NCBI GenBank assembly: GCA_025336685.1
Contig: GCA_025336685.1_4717.1
Strand: one strand, 5' to 3'
Source of the DNA: Escherichia coli
GTDB taxonomy: Bacteria; Pseudomonadota; Gammaproteobacteria; Enterobacterales; Enterobacteriaceae
DNA length: 64,000 bases
Under the pieces are notes generated by a model that saw only the letters and a program-made list of their open reading frames with translations, searched no databases and was not told where the DNA came from. This document shows, one piece after another, positions 3,001 through 57,503 of this stretch. Each line of letters opens with the position of its first letter. The stretch's first letter is position 1. Both the position numbers and the translations under genes were made by a program.

Positions 3001-3534
3001 CAGGTGAAGAATGAAGCGGCCCAAGAGGCGAACGGAACACCGACGGTAAGCAACGATCCGCAAGCCCCGGCATCTTCTACCACCCCTGAAGCTAAACCGT
3101 CTGCGGCTGCCGGTACGGCTCCAGCACCCGGAGAAGCATCACCAACGCCTGTAAGTTTCGAGACAGCAAAAGCTACGGCAGGACAACCGACATCAACTCC
3201 GGCACTTAGCGATTTGCCGTCAAACCCTGGTGCAAATCGAGGGATATCGGTTCCGAATACGCCTGCACAGGTCGCGCAGTCTGCGACACAAACATCGGCT
3301 GCGAGTGAGAACTTCTACGGTAGCGCAGGTGAAATTCTCCGACAGCAGCTGACCACGCAGCAGAACATCGAGAAGAACACCGGTAGAACGAATGAACTTA
3401 TTTCGGAATTAATCCAAGCCGTTAAGGGTTCTTCTATCGGTAAGGGTTCTGCAAGTCCTTCTCAACAACAGGCGATGTCGCTACCTAATCGTCCGCAAGG
3501 AATCTCTCCAACACGGACAAGGTACGCGCAGTAG
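1..3534 (+). CDS. Giant virion-associated protein with internal GH19 lysozyme/chitinase-like domain (5'-partial; frame is open to the window edge)
   Basis: ORF open from nt 1 in the same frame as the track ORF 40..3534. FLAN-x2-HESG and YLGRGFIQVTG motifs at about nt 2380-2930 match glycoside hydrolase family 19. Gly/Ala-rich hydrophobic segment at about 480-800; Pro/Thr/Ala-rich linker at about 2960-3300. Confidence 0.7.
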   Translation, partial: VDAQGNVVLTLADMQKGLVDKYGKAIRRLKEKLINFGVKAFTLPLTLLRKTKDILKTLPGKTVNGLRRMGLNFQSPDALLVGTTSSMVDRLDAIYQLLDQRMPGGDRDYRDWNGDGVREGSLEDLKRKRAAKENGKDDTGKDSNKGEEKEKKRGLLGSLFDMLGDTALGKRLMASPLGKILGGLGAVLSGGASLTGLLGKGLISGTGALVKGGLSAAGWLGRGALMAGGAALNAVGGLSGLGAFLISPVGLAIAGGALAAYAGWKIYQHFAEKPDPMQKLRLIAYGAKGDDKDFNKKLLATETYLTDHVVMTGDTIGFDPKADSEKILEIWELSLEDSDRMNEWKRWYLHRFIPVFARAYKLWKEHMPDEKKYMEMDKYPNGENKVKWSEAFIWPSDSPDGPYYVEANPLGSSGATRYIAGQDVKTLMLKQLEAIKKEYQNQIKQYSHDEAIADWSRMSDTQRKSVAPNALRGQKASLRFNDKRYNSAGAKGRQKLDATAVIESVDRRGRKWVAGGYIDELTSLRVRAYGIKVPLLSQIKVLMELEDAVEPGVVAEGKGVKYGGDLVALYKKFATKFGRDVNSKQDQDIWFAWMNNRFLPVFLTYYQHVSDMGGQGLLSDMVQNLKDSQRWEIGEALVATQYRDEKGALQPVWSWNSCGFSGTEANTTSSSTKSQLDLLKEYADKEKVREKNAEASQEDTDKLSKIQELMMKQAGYEKKDGVWQKKSRITGGMSNAEANYNPNGNRVGASSFTASATSSAGLGSTGDLTGLPNMGLQKPATGPGPEAGRRALVKSAVKRGITDPMEMAMFLANIEHESGNYSHVREGNYKTPERLKQVFPYKFRDVQDAAQTISMGPEAVFERVYGNRKDLGNTQKGDGAKYLGRGFIQVTGKANYARLSKTLNKDLVSDPTYLETPEGAAEGSVAWWLNRGNVLRDPAKRGDVRQVRYLVNGGYNGLRDVEQRSAYWIQAAKNGTLKKMMDELSGSTSDDQAEGPTTAEQVKNEAAQEANGTPTVSNDPQAPASSTTPEAKPSAAAGTAPAPGEASPTPVSFETAKATAGQPTSTPALSDLPSNPGANRGISVPNTPAQVAQSATQTSAASENFYGSAGEILRQQLTTQQNIEKNTGRTNELISELIQAVKGSSIGKGSASPSQQQAMSLPNRPQGISPTRTRYAQ

Positions 3535-5740: not shown

Positions 5741-5772
5741 CCCTCTCCCTTCCCTGATGGGTTGGGAGAGGG
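5741..5772. terminator. Family hairpin CCCTCTCCCTTCCC-TGAT-GGGTTGGGAGAGGG at a convergent junction
   Basis: 14-nt arms with a TT/TT mismatch; between 4105..5724 (+) and 5779..6846 (-). Confidence 0.55.
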
Positions 5773-13965: not shown

Positions 13966-14001
13966 CCCACCCTACTACCCCGTTAAGGGCGGTAGGGTGG
14001 G
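13966..14001. terminator. Hairpin at convergent junction (CCCACCCTAC...GTAGGGTGGG), likely bidirectional terminator
   Basis: About 10-bp GC-rich outer stem plus inner CCC/GGG stem; sits between convergent genes 13115..13957 (+) and 14009..14440 (-). Confidence 0.5.
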
Positions 14002-16588: not shown

Positions 16589-17965
16589 ATGAAATTTCCA
16601 ATACAACTTAACCGAGGACGTCGAATGATTAGTATTTTTGGTTTTTATACGTACAAAGGGTACGCTAATAACCACCCAAAAACCACGGCGAAATTCGGTG
16701 AGTTCAGCCAGCATAGTGCTACGTTCAGTCGCGAGATCGGCATCTATACCAACACGGCGTACGCACGTACGACCCTGCTGGTATTGAATGCAGAAAACGA
16801 AGCTGGTGAAGCACAAACGCTGGATGACAACACCGCAAATCAGATTCTTCAGGTTGGTCAATGGTTGCTGGAAAAAGCCTCATCGGGCGAAATCCAGGAT
16901 GACAGAGACCAGGTTATCAGCTACCTAAAAGACGACTTCACAACGTATTTGGATTCTATCGACATCCCGACACCCACCACCGATGGGAAAGTCTATCTAC
17001 CGGCGTGGATCAGTTTCAAGATAACCGCCACGGGTGATGTTGTCAAGATATGGCTGTCTGATAGCGTATTCCAAAGTCAATATCCAAAATACGAATATGA
17101 AGTCGTTCCTCCTGTTCCTAAGGATCAGTTAGACACCTTCTTCGAAGATCTGGCAACGTTGAAGAAACTGGTTGACAGTCGAAGCAGCGAGAAACTGACC
17201 GAAGAAATCAACGAGGTGCGCGACCAATTCCCAGACACACAATTGTGGACGAAAACCTATAAAGCGTACGATTACACCGACGATTCGAAGTACATTGATA
17301 CCGATTGGACGGTGATTATCTACGGTGCAGCAGGTAACAATATTGATAATATCAAGGAGTTCCTGCAAAACTGGATTCTTAGCAATAGTACGCATGGACG
17401 CCCAGACTGGGAAATCGTTCTGCCTGATCTTTTTATTCCGACAGAACACATCTTCATCCCAATCTGGAACCGCCACAGCGCTCCGGAGATGACCAATCAG
17501 GCACGTATTTATAGCCCCATCTTCGATGATTCGTTGATGGATACCTACCTGAAAAACTTTGCTGATGGTTACGGTGAAACCGCCGAAGTCCGTAAATCGC
17601 TTCAAGCGGTGCCGACGCTGTGGCGTTCGATCGGTTTCTTAAGTGTTGGTAACTCACGTAACCGTGATGGTAAACTTAAGTTCTACGATCGTTGGCCGCA
17701 ATACGCACTCATCAGCACAACCAGCATCGATATTAACCGTATCGACGACGCGACACGTGAATTCATCACGTTCACTTACGAGATGCTGAAACTGGCGGAA
17801 TCGCTCACTGAAGACGACCCGGTACCGTTGGGTTATAGTCGTGTTACGCGTGGTAGCAATAACTTCTTAGCGAAAAGCCACAACGATGTTCAGTATCTCT
17901 TCTTAACAAAAGAAGCGTTCCTGAAGAAAATGCCGGATGAAGCCGACACACCTGTTGGAGGTTGA
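16589..17965 (+). CDS. Hypothetical protein (458 aa), possibly structural
   Basis: Long ORF; stop is followed 2 nt later by the next ATG (coupled). Confidence 0.55.
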   Translation: MKFPIQLNRGRRMISIFGFYTYKGYANNHPKTTAKFGEFSQHSATFSREIGIYTNTAYARTTLLVLNAENEAGEAQTLDDNTANQILQVGQWLLEKASSGEIQDDRDQVISYLKDDFTTYLDSIDIPTPTTDGKVYLPAWISFKITATGDVVKIWLSDSVFQSQYPKYEYEVVPPVPKDQLDTFFEDLATLKKLVDSRSSEKLTEEINEVRDQFPDTQLWTKTYKAYDYTDDSKYIDTDWTVIIYGAAGNNIDNIKEFLQNWILSNSTHGRPDWEIVLPDLFIPTEHIFIPIWNRHSAPEMTNQARIYSPIFDDSLMDTYLKNFADGYGETAEVRKSLQAVPTLWRSIGFLSVGNSRNRDGKLKFYDRWPQYALISTTSIDINRIDDATREFITFTYEMLKLAESLTEDDPVPLGYSRVTRGSNNFLAKSHNDVQYLFLTKEAFLKKMPDEADTPVGG

Positions 17966-17967
17966 TT

Positions 17968-18594
17968 ATGGCTGTAACACGCATGACGCCAAGTCCCGGT
18001 GCGGTCGGGGTATTCACAGTATCCGCGCCGTTCACCGTTGGTGCGTCAACGCTTTATACCGTCACAGCGTTGCGTAGATTCAGTGAAGTTATTGGTAGCG
18101 GAATCGATCTATTTAAGGAACTGTACGAACCGTTATCGATAGACAAATCCACATTCGATGCGCATCTCGAAGCGAATGCTTATCTCGTTACGCTGCAACC
18201 GGATTACGGTGCGCCCGTACTGGTACCTGATACGTATATCACGTCGTACCCAAAGAACGATTCGTTGCGGTATCGTCGCATTATTCTGGGTATCGATTTC
18301 GGGCCTCTTCCTCCAGGTCTTGACCTTTCGTATTTAACAACGATATTGAAAGGTAAGGCCAGTGATATTCTTGGTGTCGAACCTGAAGTTAAAATAATGG
18401 AAATCACTCTCGATGATACCGTTACTCAGGAACAACATCAGATAAACGAAGCCCGTCGTCAGGCTGCGATAAAAGAGCGAGATACCATTTACGCGCGCTG
18501 TGAAACGCAAGAGAAGCAGATAACAGCTTTACTTGCAACCCAAAAGCAACTTATCAAATTGCTTCAGGACGCCGGAATCAATCCAACACCTTAA
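17968..18594 (+). CDS. Hypothetical protein (start at ATG 17968; the track start at 17962 is a TTG)
   Basis: Coupled to the upstream gene; followed by a strong hairpin at 18601..18633. Confidence 0.5.
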   Translation: MAVTRMTPSPGAVGVFTVSAPFTVGASTLYTVTALRRFSEVIGSGIDLFKELYEPLSIDKSTFDAHLEANAYLVTLQPDYGAPVLVPDTYITSYPKNDSLRYRRIILGIDFGPLPPGLDLSYLTTILKGKASDILGVEPEVKIMEITLDDTVTQEQHQINEARRQAAIKERDTIYARCETQEKQITALLATQKQLIKLLQDAGINPTP

Positions 18595-18600
18595 CATATT

Positions 18601-18633
18601 CCCTCCTCCTTCCCATGTTGGGTTGGAGGAGGG
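18601..18633 (+). terminator. Hairpin CCCTCCTCCTTCCC-loop-GGGTTGGAGGAGGG, member of a recurring hairpin family
   Basis: 14-nt arms with a central TT/TT mismatch, immediately after the stop of 17968..18594. Confidence 0.55.
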
Positions 18634-18647
18634 TTATGCCGTCAAGC

Positions 18648-18694
18648 AAAAAAAAAAAAAATGATAGCCACGGACCCTCCAATGAAGGAGGGTC
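18648..18694 (-). terminator. Minus-strand terminator candidate: hairpin GACCCTCC/GGAGGGTC followed on the minus strand by a U14 tract
   Basis: 8-bp stem at 18673..18694; A14 homopolymer at 18648..18661 on the plus strand; located just after the stop of 18707..19411. Confidence 0.45.
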
Positions 18695-18706
18695 GTGACC
18701 GTCAGT

Positions 18707-19411
18707 TTAGGATGTAGATAATCTCGCGTACTTCTGGCGAACATGGTTCTTACGGCGAACTTCGTCATCCTCGTCACGCCATTCGAGGTAAGCAACGAAT
18801 CGACGTAACTGTGCTGCTGTCATCGTTGACGATCGGTCTTCTACATCTAGAACGACGTAACGAACGCCACCAACATCATCGCAATCAACGTAATTGAATA
18901 CCATAAGGCCATCACCGTATTCAACGACGGTAACTTCGAACCGTTTCTCGAACAAATAAAACAGTTCCGATTCGATGATCATCGGAATGACGCATATTTC
19001 AGCACGATCGAGGATTTCCATCATCACCCGTAACGCGCGAGGAGTATGGCGAGCGAACTGGCCGTTAAAACGTTGTCTCATTGCTTGTTCCACGCCATCT
19101 GTTTTTGTTCCAAACCAAGGACGTATTACAGATTTCGGTGGTGTAAGACGAAAGCGATATGCTTGTATAAACAACAGAATATCAGCGACGTTAGGAAATT
19201 CTTCCTGGTCTTCGTATATCTTGCGGATAATATCCGGAATCGTAACCATCAAGTATTTCTTATCGCCTCCCACTTTCTCGAGATTAGCAATATGTCCTTC
19301 TACTACCGGCTGGTAAACGAAATTATACCAATGACGGTATCTTGCAGCACGCTGGTAATTCGGGATAAAATTAAGAACAACATTCACTGCACGTTTTAAC
19401 GGGTTCATCAA
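18707..19411 (-). CDS. Hypothetical protein (234 aa)
   Basis: Long minus-strand ORF. Confidence 0.5.
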   Translation of the reverse strand: MMNPLKRAVNVVLNFIPNYQRAARYRHWYNFVYQPVVEGHIANLEKVGGDKKYLMVTIPDIIRKIYEDQEEFPNVADILLFIQAYRFRLTPPKSVIRPWFGTKTDGVEQAMRQRFNGQFARHTPRALRVMMEILDRAEICVIPMIIESELFYLFEKRFEVTVVEYGDGLMVFNYVDCDDVGGVRYVVLDVEDRSSTMTAAQLRRFVAYLEWRDEDDEVRRKNHVRQKYARLSTS

Positions 19412-19422
19412 AAGGTTCCTTC

Positions 19423-19857
19423 TTATGTTCTAATATGCACATCGTCAATCCCCTCGGTAATCCAGCCGATGGGAAGGACAATCGTTGTTATCGTGTTATG
19501 GGTGTAGGGATTAAGAAAATGGAAATAGTAATTTTTGTTAGACTGTTCAATGCGTAGCTCGAGCTGCGCATCTTCAGGTAACCGTAACCAAGCACCGTAC
19601 AGCTCATTAAACTTACGCTGAATTTTACCCGGGTTCATTGGAACCCTACGACCACGGTGGCGTAGCTGACGTAATGATTCAATCAAACACTCAGAGATAC
19701 CCATTACCGTTCCGTTATCGCTTGCATCAATAACGATGAACTCATGTGACCCGCGACCATGATAGAATCCAGCAACAAGCGCAACGGCGACAACGACAAC
19801 CGTACCGATACCTACGTACCAATAGTAAACGTCCATAACAGCCTCACTTATGCCCAA
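19423..19857 (-). CDS. Predicted membrane protein (N-terminal transmembrane segment)
   Basis: Hydrophobic stretch YYWYVGIGTVVVVAVALVAGFY. Confidence 0.45.
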   Translation of the reverse strand: MGISEAVMDVYYWYVGIGTVVVVAVALVAGFYHGRGSHEFIVIDASDNGTVMGISECLIESLRQLRHRGRRVPMNPGKIQRKFNELYGAWLRLPEDAQLELRIEQSNKNYYFHFLNPYTHNTITTIVLPIGWITEGIDDVHIRT

Positions 19858-20423
19858 TAGTCGGCGAGCGGTTTCACCTTATTAATGGGTAACTGTACTT
19901 TACCGATGTTCTCTACATCCGCATCAGCGTAGAGAACGATTTTATCGTCGTCTCTTTCCCAACGTATAATAAATCGACCAGGAAGAAGATTACCCTGTTC
20001 AAGAGATGCTGTAACCTGTTGTGTTAAAACAGACAACCAAGCAGGCATCAGTGTTGCAATATCTAAGTCATTTGACCACTCAGCACGTTGCTCCACTGGA
20101 CGCAACATACGTTGGACGGTGCGTTGAACTGTTGCGGTGATATAGCCTTTATCTTCGTCACTGATTGGATCCGGACGAGACACGAAACGTTCAGCAGGCT
20201 TACGGGAAATATGTTCATGTAGTTTGATGAGTGGTGTTGTCATAGTACTCGCTCCATCAGAATGTAATTGGGTAACCCGCAGGGTTGTCTGCATGTTATT
20301 CAGAAGCGCAAAAGCGCCATAAACAACAACGATACCAAGTACAGCCAAAACAGAAATCATTAACGTGTATTGCATTGTCATCTTCCCCTCATACGCATCT
20401 TGAAGATTAGTTAAAAACAACAA
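19848..20423 (-). CDS. Predicted membrane protein (N-terminal transmembrane segment)
   Basis: Hydrophobic stretch LMISVLAVLGIVVVYGAFALL; short overlap with the downstream gene. Confidence 0.45.
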   Translation of the reverse strand: MLFLTNLQDAYEGKMTMQYTLMISVLAVLGIVVVYGAFALLNNMQTTLRVTQLHSDGASTMTTPLIKLHEHISRKPAERFVSRPDPISDEDKGYITATVQRTVQRMLRPVEQRAEWSNDLDIATLMPAWLSVLTQQVTASLEQGNLLPGRFIIRWERDDDKIVLYADADVENIGKVQLPINKVKPLADYWA

Positions 20424-20470
20424 AAGAAAAAACGATATAAAGCAAGGTCCTCTGATATCAGAGGACCTTG
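20411..20470 (-). terminator. Rho-independent terminator (minus strand): perfect 28-nt palindrome followed by a T-rich tract
   Basis: CAAGGTCCTCTGATATCAGAGGACCTTG at 20443..20470; minus-strand T-rich run corresponds to plus-strand 20411..20440. Confidence 0.6.
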
Positions 20471-20476
20471 GATCAA

Positions 20477-21160
20477 TTAGCTTGCAGCATCTTCATTTGT
20501 ATCAGGTTTGCTTCCCCCTAACAAACCGTCAAACAGACCTGTATGTTTCAGGTAGAAGATAGCGATAGCGCCCATCGCTGCTGCGCTCGTCGCCGTTAAC
20601 GCAACCCCAGCACGATACTGCCATTTACGGTCAGGCTTTTGATCAAGCGCCATACGACGCATGTATTCAGCCTCTGCTTCATTCCGATGAATTTCGGATT
20701 CGGCCAGACGGGCTAAGGTATCGCGGTCAAGGTTATCATAACGTACGTTCATGGAAGTTTCCTCTTGTTTGGAAGTTGATTGCTTAGTGGATTCTTGGTC
20801 AACAGTCGTTTCAGTTGGTTCAAACGGCTGGTTGTTCATTTTCTGATCTTTATTGGTCATGATAGACTCCTTCGATTTTTGAGACGAAATTGATTTAAAC
20901 CATCGTGGATGGCGGTATTCGGTTTTACATGTACAGTTAAGTTTCTCGTGCATGAAAGCGTAAAAACGTTTTGCACCTACACGTAAGGCTTTCAGCATTA
21001 TCCATCCACGAGCACTCAAACGGTGTAGCTGTTGCGGTATGTCGAGTTTCCTAGCCAAGCGAAAGTATCTCTCAATCACTTCGATAGGAAACCATTGTTG
21101 TTCCGCATCGGTGAGACTGAAAGTCTTATCCATGATTGAAATCTCGCTGGCTTGCTTCAC
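20477..21160 (-). CDS. Hypothetical protein with C-terminal transmembrane segment
   Basis: C-terminal hydrophobic stretch VALTATSAAAMGAIAIFYL; acidic/Ser-Thr-rich middle. Confidence 0.5.
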   Translation of the reverse strand: MKQASEISIMDKTFSLTDAEQQWFPIEVIERYFRLARKLDIPQQLHRLSARGWIMLKALRVGAKRFYAFMHEKLNCTCKTEYRHPRWFKSISSQKSKESIMTNKDQKMNNQPFEPTETTVDQESTKQSTSKQEETSMNVRYDNLDRDTLARLAESEIHRNEAEAEYMRRMALDQKPDRKWQYRAGVALTATSAAAMGAIAIFYLKHTGLFDGLLGGSKPDTNEDAAS

Positions 21161-22752: not shown

Positions 22753-22784
22753 CATCCTCCCAACCCGTAAGGGAAGGGAGGATG
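22753..22784. terminator. Family hairpin CATCCTCCCAACCC-GTAA-GGGAAGGGAGGATG at a convergent junction
   Basis: 14-nt arms with a single AA/AA mismatch; between convergent genes 22335..22748 (+) and 22802..23443 (-). Confidence 0.55.
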
Positions 22785-29789: not shown

Positions 29790-29824
29790 CCTCCTTCCCC
29801 GGCCTTGGTGGCTAGGGAAGGAGG
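29790..29824. terminator. Family hairpin CCTCCTTCCC-loop-GGGAAGGAGG at a convergent junction
   Basis: 10-bp perfect stem with a 15-nt loop, between 28678..29766 (+) and 29840..30277 (-). Confidence 0.5.
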
Positions 29825-34926: not shown

Positions 34927-35709
34927 TCATGCGAACGTTTCTCCTGTAACGTGTTGTGGGCGTTGTAGCATGGTAGCATCCCATTGTACGATCCGGCTCC
35001 GGCTTACCCGCATCATGACGGATTCATCGTCAAGCCCCGGTTGCGCAACCGGCAACCAACGTTCGTTAAGCACCTTCGCTTCAACCCGTTTCTTGCGTGG
35101 GTTGTAACGCACCTCGCTAACCCAAGCGAATCCAAGCGGATGCACAACCCGTGGATAATACGTGCGAAGCAATTGATGCATCCGATCCAGTACCTCCAAG
35201 CTCGCATCGGCCATGTATGGTTTCACCATGGTAAGCTTTTTGGTGTAATACGTCCCAACGGTATGGTTCGCCCACCCGGGAAGCACGTGATGGAATCCTA
35301 CCTGTAATTGTGTATTGCCGTTCACCTTCAGCCAACCGTATTGTCCAGCCGCACGTCCCTCGTCAGTATCGATCCATGTAAGTATATCGATGAACGCACG
35401 ATCGGTGATCTCGATGCGTTCCACCCGTTCATCCAACGCACCACGTACCACGAATCCGCTCGCGCTCACCCGCGCAGGATGCTGGCTGCGATGCGCGTAC
35501 CAATTCTTGTTGCCGGTAAGCAGGTAAGGGTACGTGTGAGCACCCCGCCAAACAACCGTTCCGTTCGTCCCATCAACACAGTGTACATACATCCCATCTT
35601 GACCGTTGTTGTAGCATGCTACCTTCACGCATTCGTTTTGAACATCGCTCGGTAACGCCAGGTATTCACCTTCGGTAAACATGGTATCAAAAATGATTTC
35701 TTCGTTCAT
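34927..35709 (-). CDS. Paralogue family B protein (3 of 3), divergent N-terminus
   Basis: C-terminal VHPLGFAWVSEVRYNPRKKRVEAKV aligns with VHPLGYALVYDVRWNTNLQTVEVKI of 32870..33703. Confidence 0.55.
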   Translation of the reverse strand: MNEEIIFDTMFTEGEYLALPSDVQNECVKVACYNNGQDGMYVHCVDGTNGTVVWRGAHTYPYLLTGNKNWYAHRSQHPARVSASGFVVRGALDERVERIEITDRAFIDILTWIDTDEGRAAGQYGWLKVNGNTQLQVGFHHVLPGWANHTVGTYYTKKLTMVKPYMADASLEVLDRMHQLLRTYYPRVVHPLGFAWVSEVRYNPRKKRVEAKVLNERWLPVAQPGLDDESVMMRVSRSRIVQWDATMLQRPQHVTGETFA

Positions 35710-35789
35710 CTAAAAAGATCCTCTGTTTTTCACGTTAATTAAACAACGTATTGATTTCTATTTAACGCAATACGAACATCGTACGTATG

Positions 35790-35810
35790 CATCATGAAGG
35801 TAATATAGTC
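35790..35810 (+). promoter_or_regulatory. Conserved 21-mer CATCATGAAGGTAATATAGTC (second copy)
   Basis: Exact 21/21 identity with 8034..8054; sits at the left edge of the AT-rich region, pointing into it. Confidence 0.4.
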
Positions 35811-36415
35811 GTGAAAGGATTTGCATTAAAGCAAGGGTAATTGTTTTGTTTTAAGAAGGGATGGATGATAGCGGTATCTGAAAGGAGAAGGATTTTAAGG
35901 AAGGTCTTGATTGAAGTAAGTGAAGAGGATGATTATTTCGGTTTAAGTAAGTAGGTAAGTTATCGTGTTATTGTTTTTTGTCTTAATGGTTTTATCGTTT
36001 TATCTGTTGTTTATATAAATCAAATTAAATTATAAAGTCAGTTAAGATGTTGGTTAACAACGTTCAACTCAAAAAACCATTTGTGATACTCTTCTTCACG
36101 TTGTTCATCAGAGTATCTCGTCTATACTCATTGCATTCGTATACGACATAACCGTTATACGCTAACGCTACGCTTATAGCTTGATAACTCTAAGGATAAA
36201 AACATAAACTCGCTTCGCTCGTTTAGTTTTTCTTTTTCTTAGAGTTATCCTGTTGCTCGTCTCTAAAGGACTTCGCTCCTCCCCCGTCCCCCGAAGGGGC
36301 CGAGGTCGTGGAAATTTTACTTTCCAAATACATTTACAACATCTGTAAACTTTTACTCCAGGTACTTAATCTTATCATTAGAAATTATAAAGAGAAGAAT
36401 AAACACAAACATAAA

Positions 36416-36447
36416 CCTTCCTCCAACCCAACAGGGAAGGAGGAAGG
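36416..36447 (-). terminator. Family hairpin CCTTCCTCCAACCC-AACA-GGGAAGGAGGAAGG after the stop of 36461..37354
   Basis: 14-nt arms with one mismatch; on the minus strand it is followed by a T-rich run. Confidence 0.55.
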
Positions 36448-36460
36448 GATACAATGGTTA

Positions 36461-37354
36461 TTATTCGGAAACGTTGTAACCGAACACCGCTTTACCGTAG
36501 GTGTGAGTACCGTCAGCTAATGACAGCACCAGCACGTGGTTGTACGTAGCGTTAACACCCTTGTCGGTAGACTCGGTGGTAGCACCGTTGTAGACGAAAG
36601 TAGCCGTTTGCAGATTGGCTTTCAGCTCGGTGATGATCTCATCACCCACACCCGTCTGCTCTTTGATCAGCGTGGTCAGGTTACCCGCCAGGCTTTCATC
36701 GATCTTGGTTTCATCACTGGTAATAGCTTGTAAACCTGCGGTGTAGGTGCTGAAGTCTAACGGATAGGTTAACAGACGCGCTGAGGTCTTGGTACCATCG
36801 CCTTCATCAACGTAGGTTAACTTACCCAGGTTGGTAACCTTGATGATGTTAGCCAGATCCAGCGTGGTGTTATAAACTTTAACTTCAACGGAACCGTACC
36901 AAGCCAGCGAATCTTCTTTGGCCTGCAGGGTGATCGTCTGGATACCATGATCGTCGAAGGTAACCGGCGTAGCTAACGTATCGGCTTTGATGTCTTTCGT
37001 TTTATCTAAGAACTTCTCACCGGAAGGCGTGATCATACCGTAGCGTTGAGCTACAAGGTCAACCACGTCACCAATAGTGGTGTTAGCATTAACGTTAACG
37101 CGTACGGCGATCTTCTGGAACCACTTAGCCAGATCCAGACGATGATAGGTAACATCGCGGTCATTGAAGTAAGGTGTACCTTCACCAGGGCTAAGCGTTA
37201 AAGTTGCATCTGGAGCAGAATCGCTTTTGGATTTAAGAACGTATTTAAGGTCGGTGGGTTTGAAGTTGGCACCAGTGTCGGCGTTGAGTGTGTTAATCTC
37301 ATCAACGATAAGTTGCCAAGGTGTTTTTAAAGTAAGTGATACTTGAGCTGTCAT
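36461..37354 (-). CDS. Putative virion structural protein, paralogue family C (YxDR ... AW(T/Y)GSV motifs)
   Basis: Shares motifs with 37498..38040, 48415..49320, 50237..51088 and 51099..52046; codon usage biased towards preferred codons. Confidence 0.55.
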   Translation of the reverse strand: MTAQVSLTLKTPWQLIVDEINTLNADTGANFKPTDLKYVLKSKSDSAPDATLTLSPGEGTPYFNDRDVTYHRLDLAKWFQKIAVRVNVNANTTIGDVVDLVAQRYGMITPSGEKFLDKTKDIKADTLATPVTFDDHGIQTITLQAKEDSLAWYGSVEVKVYNTTLDLANIIKVTNLGKLTYVDEGDGTKTSARLLTYPLDFSTYTAGLQAITSDETKIDESLAGNLTTLIKEQTGVGDEIITELKANLQTATFVYNGATTESTDKGVNATYNHVLVLSLADGTHTYGKAVFGYNVSE

Positions 37355-38239: not shown

Positions 38240-38272
38240 CCCCTCCTCAGCCCTTATCGGGTTGGGGAGGGG
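38240..38272. terminator. Family hairpin CCCCTCCTCAGCCC-loop-GGGTTGGGGAGGGG (imperfect) at a convergent junction
   Basis: Between 37498..38040 (+) and 38336..38971 (-); two mismatches in the 14-nt arms. Confidence 0.45.
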
Positions 38273-48373: not shown

Positions 48374-48405
48374 CCCTCCTCCTTCCCTTACGGGTTGGAG
48401 GAGGG
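48374..48405. terminator. Family hairpin CCCTCCTCCTTCCC-TTAC-GGGTTGGAGGAGGG at a convergent junction
   Basis: Arms identical to the 18601 copy; between 47083..48363 (+) and 48415..49320 (-). Confidence 0.55.
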
Positions 48406-57468: not shown

Positions 57469-57503
57469 CCTTCTCCCCAACCCGATGAGGGAAGGGGAGA
57501 AGG
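57469..57503. terminator. Family hairpin CCTTCTCCCCAACCC-GATGA-GGGAAGGGGAGAAGG at a convergent junction
   Basis: 15-nt arms with an AA/AA mismatch; between 54533..57439 (+) and 57516..57797 (-). Confidence 0.55.

Follow-up and report, generated by a model that had tools for sequence, protein, structure and literature searches.

Predicted facing intrinsic terminators, one with an unusually long U-tract, between converging gene units of a Goslar-like jumbo phage

A run of 14 A residues flanked by two hairpins, in a spacer on which two genes converge, raises the question of which transcripts such an arrangement would bring to an end and whether the run itself has a share in doing so. The original prediction took the site for a pair of back-to-back terminators and suggested that T14 may be the U-tract on which the minus-strand unit ends. 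Our analysis supports this reading, and we regard it as quite probable, judging from sequence comparison, that the 112-bp spacer consists of two facing intrinsic terminators, one for each converging unit of a Goslar-like chimallivirus. In a DNA-level search of a phage collection, region 17000-20500 of the window (the whole 64-kb stretch of DNA that was analysed) had a sole match, Escherichia phage vB_EcoM_Goslar (MK327938, 237,307 bp), at 91.6% identity, and the window as a whole is about 91% identical to that phage. Goslar is classed with the nucleus-forming jumbo phages of the Chimalliviridae. The elements of the junction are the following.

17968 to 18594, plus strand: last gene of the plus-strand unit, encoding a DUF7194 protein (open reading frame and homology)
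18595 to 18639, plus strand: HP1, a putative terminator hairpin of a repeated family (fold, family repeats and conservation)
18634 to 18642, plus strand: tail TTATGCCGT directly 3' of HP1, the predicted plus-strand 3'-end zone
18648 to 18661, minus strand: A14 on the plus strand and T14 on the minus strand, the U-tract of the predicted minus-strand terminator (adjoins HP2)
18662 to 18704, minus strand: HP2, an extended 17-pair stem-loop (fold and covariation)
18707 to 19408, minus strand: last gene of the minus-strand unit, encoding a 233-aa hypothetical protein (open reading frame and homology)

The DUF7194 gene is preceded by a virion structural protein gene at 16589-17965 and has homologues in Goslar_00249, gp161 of phiKZ and gp245 of 201phi2-1; the minus-strand gene is a homologue of Goslar_00001 and is genus-specific. 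With the plus-strand stop at 18594 and the minus-strand stop codon at 18707-18709, the two genes face each other across the 112 bp, just as a convergent junction had been proposed, and the layout from one stop codon to the other is:

...TAA CATATT CCCTCCTCC TT CCCA TGT TGGG TT GGAGGAGGG TTATGCCGTCAAGC A14 TGA T AGC CAC G GACCCTCC AATGAA GGAGGGTC GTG ACC G TCA GT TTA...

Each of the three elements that had been named (hairpin, A14 and second hairpin) is found in this sequence. Small open reading frames that span the spacer, at 18533-18664 on the plus strand and at 18634-18795 on the minus strand, were rejected as spurious, since their course takes them through the hairpins and a homopolymer of variable length. 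The full arrangement of HP1, A/T-run, HP2 and convergent genes is kept in 11 related genomes, namely the window, Goslar, two IMG/VR contigs and seven metagenome contigs; the relatives were located via the flanking proteins, whose identity ranges from 99% down to 64%. An Rfam search of 17800-19600 at a permissive E-value gave no match on the hairpins and two chance-level matches elsewhere. A simple promoter and terminator scan called neither hairpin, because HP2 contains a bulge and a mismatch and HP1 is without a T-run.

HP1 has the sequence CCCTCCTCC-TT-CCCA-TGT-TGGG-TT-GGAGGAGGG at 18601-18633 and folds in two tiers. An outer CATA/TATG helix (18595-18598 with 18635-18638) encloses a 9-bp pyrimidine/purine stem (18601-18609 paired with 18625-18633), which leads through a 2x2 TT/TT internal loop to an inner CCCA/TGGG stem and a 3-nt loop. 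The energy of the fold is -29 kcal/mol (z = -5.4), none of 200 shuffles was as stable, and the arms do not change among the 11 genomes. HP1 had been called a family hairpin, and the name is well earned: CCCTCC...GGAGGG occurs 4 times against 0.06 expected, and the same two-tier architecture stands at all 8 convergent junctions of the window, with one HP1-type hairpin at each of the other seven. In window coordinates these seven, and a further member of the family, are:

5741 to 5772: family hairpin at a convergent junction
13966 to 14001: family hairpin at a convergent junction
22753 to 22784: family hairpin at a convergent junction
29790 to 29824: family hairpin at a convergent junction
38240 to 38272: family hairpin at a convergent junction
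48374 to 48405: family hairpin at a convergent junction
57469 to 57503: family hairpin at a convergent junction
36416 to 36447, minus sense: further family hairpin, with tail TTTATGTTTG

The design common to the family is CATA, a pyrimidine arm of 9-10 nt, 2 nt, CCC, a loop of about 4 nt, GGG, 2 nt, a purine arm and TATG. The outer arms covary from copy to copy, and the pyrimidine arm always lies 5' on both strands. Across the Goslar genome, a stem-finder combined with ORF-based gene calls (from which "convergent" was assigned) located 15 strong hairpins at convergent junctions, most of them with the family architecture and one of them HP2, along with many more strong hairpins at co-directional junctions. 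The depositors of Goslar labelled the equivalents of the 38241 and 48374 hairpins as putative terminators. Within 12 nt after intergenic hairpins, TATG is present in 15 of 30 tails compared with a background of 2.2% (P ~1e-17).

The nearest precedent for HP1 comes from transcript-end mapping in related phages. ONT-cappable-seq of phiKZ defined 133 termination regions (Putzeys et al. 2024, PMC10914365), six of which are bidirectional and lie between convergent genes, and most of the intrinsic terminators share the motif BCCYCCCCHWWDGGGRRGGBYTTATKYYGT (PMC10914365). In 201phi2-1, 132 termination sites were reported, 15 of them bidirectional; the main motif there (motif A) was described as strongly resembling that of phiKZ, and in vivo tests confirmed eight of the terminators (PMC11512511). 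Like the phiKZ motif, HP1 is a GC-rich hairpin whose 5' arm is rich in pyrimidines and whose 3' arm is rich in purines; TTAT and then G-YY-GT come after the stem, and the tail TTATGCCGT at 18634-18642 fits the TTATKYYGT portion of the motif. Hairpins of the HP1 type are also like the phiKZ motif in being present in many copies per genome, convergent gene pairs included. Placing a plus-strand terminator at HP1 is thus in keeping with an experimentally mapped motif, matched here in the plus sense. The Goslar-group hairpin differs from the phiKZ motif in being longer and two-tiered, with an outer stem of 9-10 bp, a 2x2 internal loop and an inner CCC/GGG stem, and in its CATA...TATG frame. Because of this longer, two-tiered stem, the full 30-nt phiKZ consensus has no match in the window at up to 3 mismatches; TTATKYYGT by itself is not enriched in the window either, with 8 matches where 6.2 are expected. 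HP1 is, by resemblance and not by strict membership, the putative Goslar-group counterpart of the phiKZ motif, and the family hairpin as a whole looks like the Goslar-group version of that motif, used bidirectionally. Transfer of a mapped termination site from 201phi2-1 was tried and rejected, as gp245 is followed by a co-directional gene there and there is no convergent junction. A literature search turned up no transcriptome of Goslar-like phages.

On the minus strand the evidence is of a different kind. HP2 has a core at 18669-18697 and a full stem at 18662-18704, with 17 pairs arranged as 3 + 6 + 8, one C·A mismatch, one bulged C and a 6-nt loop. The second hairpin of the original prediction is therefore present, and only its end coordinate of 18694 does not stand, being too short for a stem that reaches 18704. 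Folded as minus-sense RNA, HP2 has an energy of -27.6 kcal/mol (z = -5.3), and 0 of 200 shuffles were as stable; read in the plus sense, the stem acquires additional mismatches. Among the 11 genomes, which supply only nine distinct and closely related sequences for this comparison, 99.3% of cells are paired in the minus sense versus 88.9% in the plus sense. Compensatory double changes are seen in three pairs (A-U to G-C, C-G to U-A and the closing U-A to C-G), and the last of these adjoins the T-run. The one-sided changes all point the same way: in eight of eight, the minus sense has G·U where the plus sense has A·C. Since both the pairing and the G·U changes are asymmetric between the strands, these data indicate that the structure of HP2 is under selection at the level of minus-strand RNA, the conserved stem being the one in contact with the T-run, and the assignment of the second hairpin to the minus strand is borne out by the covariation and by wobble pairs that occur in the minus sense only.

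The last pair of HP2, the closing U-A, directly abuts U14 in the minus-sense RNA, which is what would be expected if T14 is the U-tract of a minus-strand terminator, as had been suggested. The run is exactly 14 A long (18648-18661). It was described as the longest homopolymer noticed, and it is the sole one above 7 in the 64-kb window, whose base composition predicts about 0.0003 runs of this kind. A T-run directly 3' of the HP2 stem is found in 11 of 11 genomes, with lengths of 14, 17, 13, 16, 12, 13, 15, 12, 12 and 13 and the form T3CT9 in the most distant genome, although those lengths that come from metagenome assemblies may be off by about 1 base. The length varies even where the flanking protein is 99% identical. 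The association of T-runs with hairpins extends to the whole genome of Goslar, in which every homopolymer of at least 9 (at 40, 36823, 48086, 108101/108114, 146584 and 200204) is A on the plus strand, and so T in minus-strand transcripts, and either follows a minus-sense terminator hairpin directly or stands at most about 14 nt beyond it. When all homopolymers of at least 8 in that genome were listed, none was a C or G run. The run at 18648-18661 is the longest of this class of T-runs tied to terminator hairpins.

HP2 has the features by which a canonical Rho-independent terminator is recognised: a stable, GC-rich hairpin with compensatory changes, an immediate U-run, a position just 3' of a stop codon and selection at the RNA level. 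It departs from that pattern in the length of its 17-pair stem, with its mismatch and bulge, and in a U-run of 12-17 nt, and it would presumably act on a multisubunit RNAP of the phage and not on the host enzyme. The U-run of a bacterial Rho-independent terminator is usually 7-9 nt. Bidirectional terminators between convergent bacterial genes, as reportedly described by Ju, Li and Liu in 2019, have one hairpin with an A-tract on one side and a U-tract on the other. The junction is like these in having convergent genes and an A-tract on one strand that is the U-tract of the other, and unlike them in having two hairpins, one per strand, with the A-run between them. No single shared hairpin flanked by both tracts was found at 18595-18704, whereas the other junctions of the window fit the single-hairpin type.

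Taken together, the structures, strand asymmetry, covariation, conservation, genome-wide link between T-runs and hairpins and resemblance to the phiKZ motif suggest how the junction would work. Transcripts of the plus-strand unit, which would carry the virion structural and DUF7194 genes, are predicted to fold HP1 and to be released in or just after TTAT(GCCGT), at about 18634-18642. Transcripts of the minus-strand unit would fold HP2 and be released within U14, from 18661 down to 18648, with the hairpin invading a weak rU:dA hybrid as in the classical mechanism. The two predicted 3' ends would face each other about 6-25 nt apart with no shared stretch. Where termination is efficient, the convergent RNAs would thus stay clear of each other, and the polymerases would halt before they could collide. 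The case for back-to-back terminators thus draws on a tail that fits a mapped motif for the plus strand and on covariation of HP2, with its adjoining U14, in the minus sense for the other. The polymerases would be the phage-encoded multisubunit enzymes vRNAP and nvRNAP, a view taken because several homologues of RNAP beta and beta' subunits are annotated in Goslar and because of what is known of phiKZ. Both termination at the junction and the involvement of phage RNAPs are what we infer from these sequence features.

The position of the hairpins relative to the genes deserves comment. HP1 and HP2 start 2-6 nt after their stop codons (HP2, from its start at 18704, follows the stop codon of the minus-strand gene by 2 nt), and the family hairpins across the junctions start just 2-10 nt after theirs. 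The phage nucleus of chimalliviruses is free of ribosomes. In E. coli, a terminator this near a stop codon is repressed under coupled transcription and translation (PMC4824070). Such closeness would be less of a problem if the phage genes are transcribed inside that nucleus.

Whether two terminators are needed at all is the main point on which another reading could be built. HP1 alone might act as a bidirectional terminator for both units, with HP2 and U14 doing something else, such as serving as a fail-safe second stop, a stabiliser of the 3' end or a protein-binding tail (bound, for example, by a poly-U binder of the Hfq type, with mRNA stability set in this way). In favour of this, each of the seven remaining convergent junctions in the window has a single HP1-type hairpin, and the minus-sense tail of HP1, AATATGTTAA, equals the plus-sense tail of the 5741 hairpin. 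A point against the preferred reading is that the U-tract after HP1 consists of UUAU only. A minus-strand polymerase, however, meets HP2 and U14 before it meets HP1, and since 17 pairs with U14 behind them come near to an ideal intrinsic terminator, not many polymerases would be expected to get as far as HP1. We therefore consider it unlikely that HP1 serves both units by itself. A role of HP2 in RNA stability or protein binding would be compatible with termination, as a terminator hairpin also stabilises the 3' end, and the two are not exclusive.

The variable run invites a second alternative, namely that it is a slippage switch governing a neighbouring gene through phase variation or transcriptional slippage. 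Homopolymers of this length slip in both replication and transcription, and the run length of 12-17 in close relatives, which bears out the earlier description of the run as a potential slippage hotspot, is what such a switch would show. The run, however, belongs to no conserved open reading frame and lies beyond the stop codons of both genes, it is not spanned by any credible promoter (the only promoter-like hit nearby, at 18695-18722, is at chance level), and it never falls below 12 consecutive T, the one T3CT9 variant excepted, which fits a tract that is kept long and not one that is toggled. A switch of this kind is very improbable. Least probable of all is an element that acts at the DNA level, whether as a physical end of the genome or a site of packaging, as a signal for replication or recombination, or as a cruciform with a bent A-tract. 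In its favour, the Goslar GenBank record begins and ends within the poly-A, and inverted hairpin centres and a hairpin nested in two lineages point to DNA-level recombination at palindromes. Against it, the final 55 nt of that record equal its first 55 nt, and its genome was found to be circularly permuted by BAL-31 digestion and was assembled with SPAdes at k = 55 (PMC6563267). Five other contigs, of 237-249 kb, have the junction in their interior, the G·U pairs confined to one strand point to selection on RNA and not DNA, and the GC skew has no turning point at the junction.

The Goslar match begins at base 1 of the record, which corresponds to window position 18608: MK327938 was linearised inside the poly-A, and positions 1-56 compared with 237253-237307 reveal the 55-nt end duplication. 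A physical genome end or pac site at the junction was ruled out by the k = 55 overlap together with circular permutation. As the duplication equals the SPAdes overlap, the record exceeds the true Goslar genome by 55 bp. The split of the record at this place is an assembly artefact, and it is the reason why the junction and its predicted terminators are unannotated there. The main use of the present analysis is accordingly in annotation, as the junction is missing from the Goslar reference, and the locus stands as a warning that this homopolymer breaks or distorts short-read assemblies. As read from its sequence, the junction is a case of ordinary intrinsic terminators of a known kind, here predicted ones, with an unusually long U-tract of variable length. 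The results indicate that the chimalliviruses of E. coli, too, have the phiKZ-type terminator grammar of a pyrimidine/purine hairpin with TTATG-YY-GT after it, in a longer, two-tier form. The junction additionally offers a natural pair of facing, non-overlapping predicted terminators that is testable with phage vRNAP and nvRNAP, and the U-tract series of 12-17 is natural material on how these polymerases respond to U-tract length. To our knowledge, the termination rules of vRNAP and nvRNAP are still poorly characterised.

Several observations on the hairpins themselves accompany these results. In OGZS01000006.1 (locus L012) and ERZ1026903 NODE-5 (locus L015), at about 3275-3330 of each locus, a second family hairpin is nested within HP1. 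It has the form CCATCCTCCC-NN-CCC-loop-GGG-NN-GGGAGGATG, the type found at 22753 of the window, and its centre is inverted between the two contigs, a pattern suggesting that terminator hairpins have recombined or been copied into one another. The loop of HP2 is flipped in IMGVR_UViG_3300045988_173921 (locus L006, 4705-4730, equal to L004), which has TTCATT in place of AATGAA, and in JACXXQ010000003.1 (locus L016, about 3280-3310) the HP1 centre AACCCGTAAGGGAA is replaced by its reverse complement TTCCCTTACGGGTT. The inverted and nested hairpins together point to recombination at palindromes. Small inversions at hairpins and recombination at repeated regulatory stem-loops are known from elsewhere, among them the loop flip-flops of chloroplast hairpins and the PeSL cassettes of T4-type phages. 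The Goslar-group hairpins resemble these in having loops or centres inverted between arms that are kept and in one family hairpin being nested in another, whereas what is seen of them here is sequence patterns in a few genomes. A bolder proposal is that the Goslar-like terminator hairpins are recombinogenic, perhaps self-propagating palindromic cassettes, and that the T-run is a fast-evolving rheostat, tunable by slippage, of read-through by the non-canonical multisubunit RNAPs of the phage at a convergent junction; we hold it to be rather improbable. Finally, greedy gene calling left 751 nt of the window, at 35709-36461, without an accepted open reading frame of at least 60 aa. This region holds the family hairpin at 36416-36447, a GGCCCCTTCGGGGG hairpin and a long imperfect inverted repeat, GGATAACTCTAAG...CTTAGAGTTATC, and it may be a non-coding RNA or a regulatory region.
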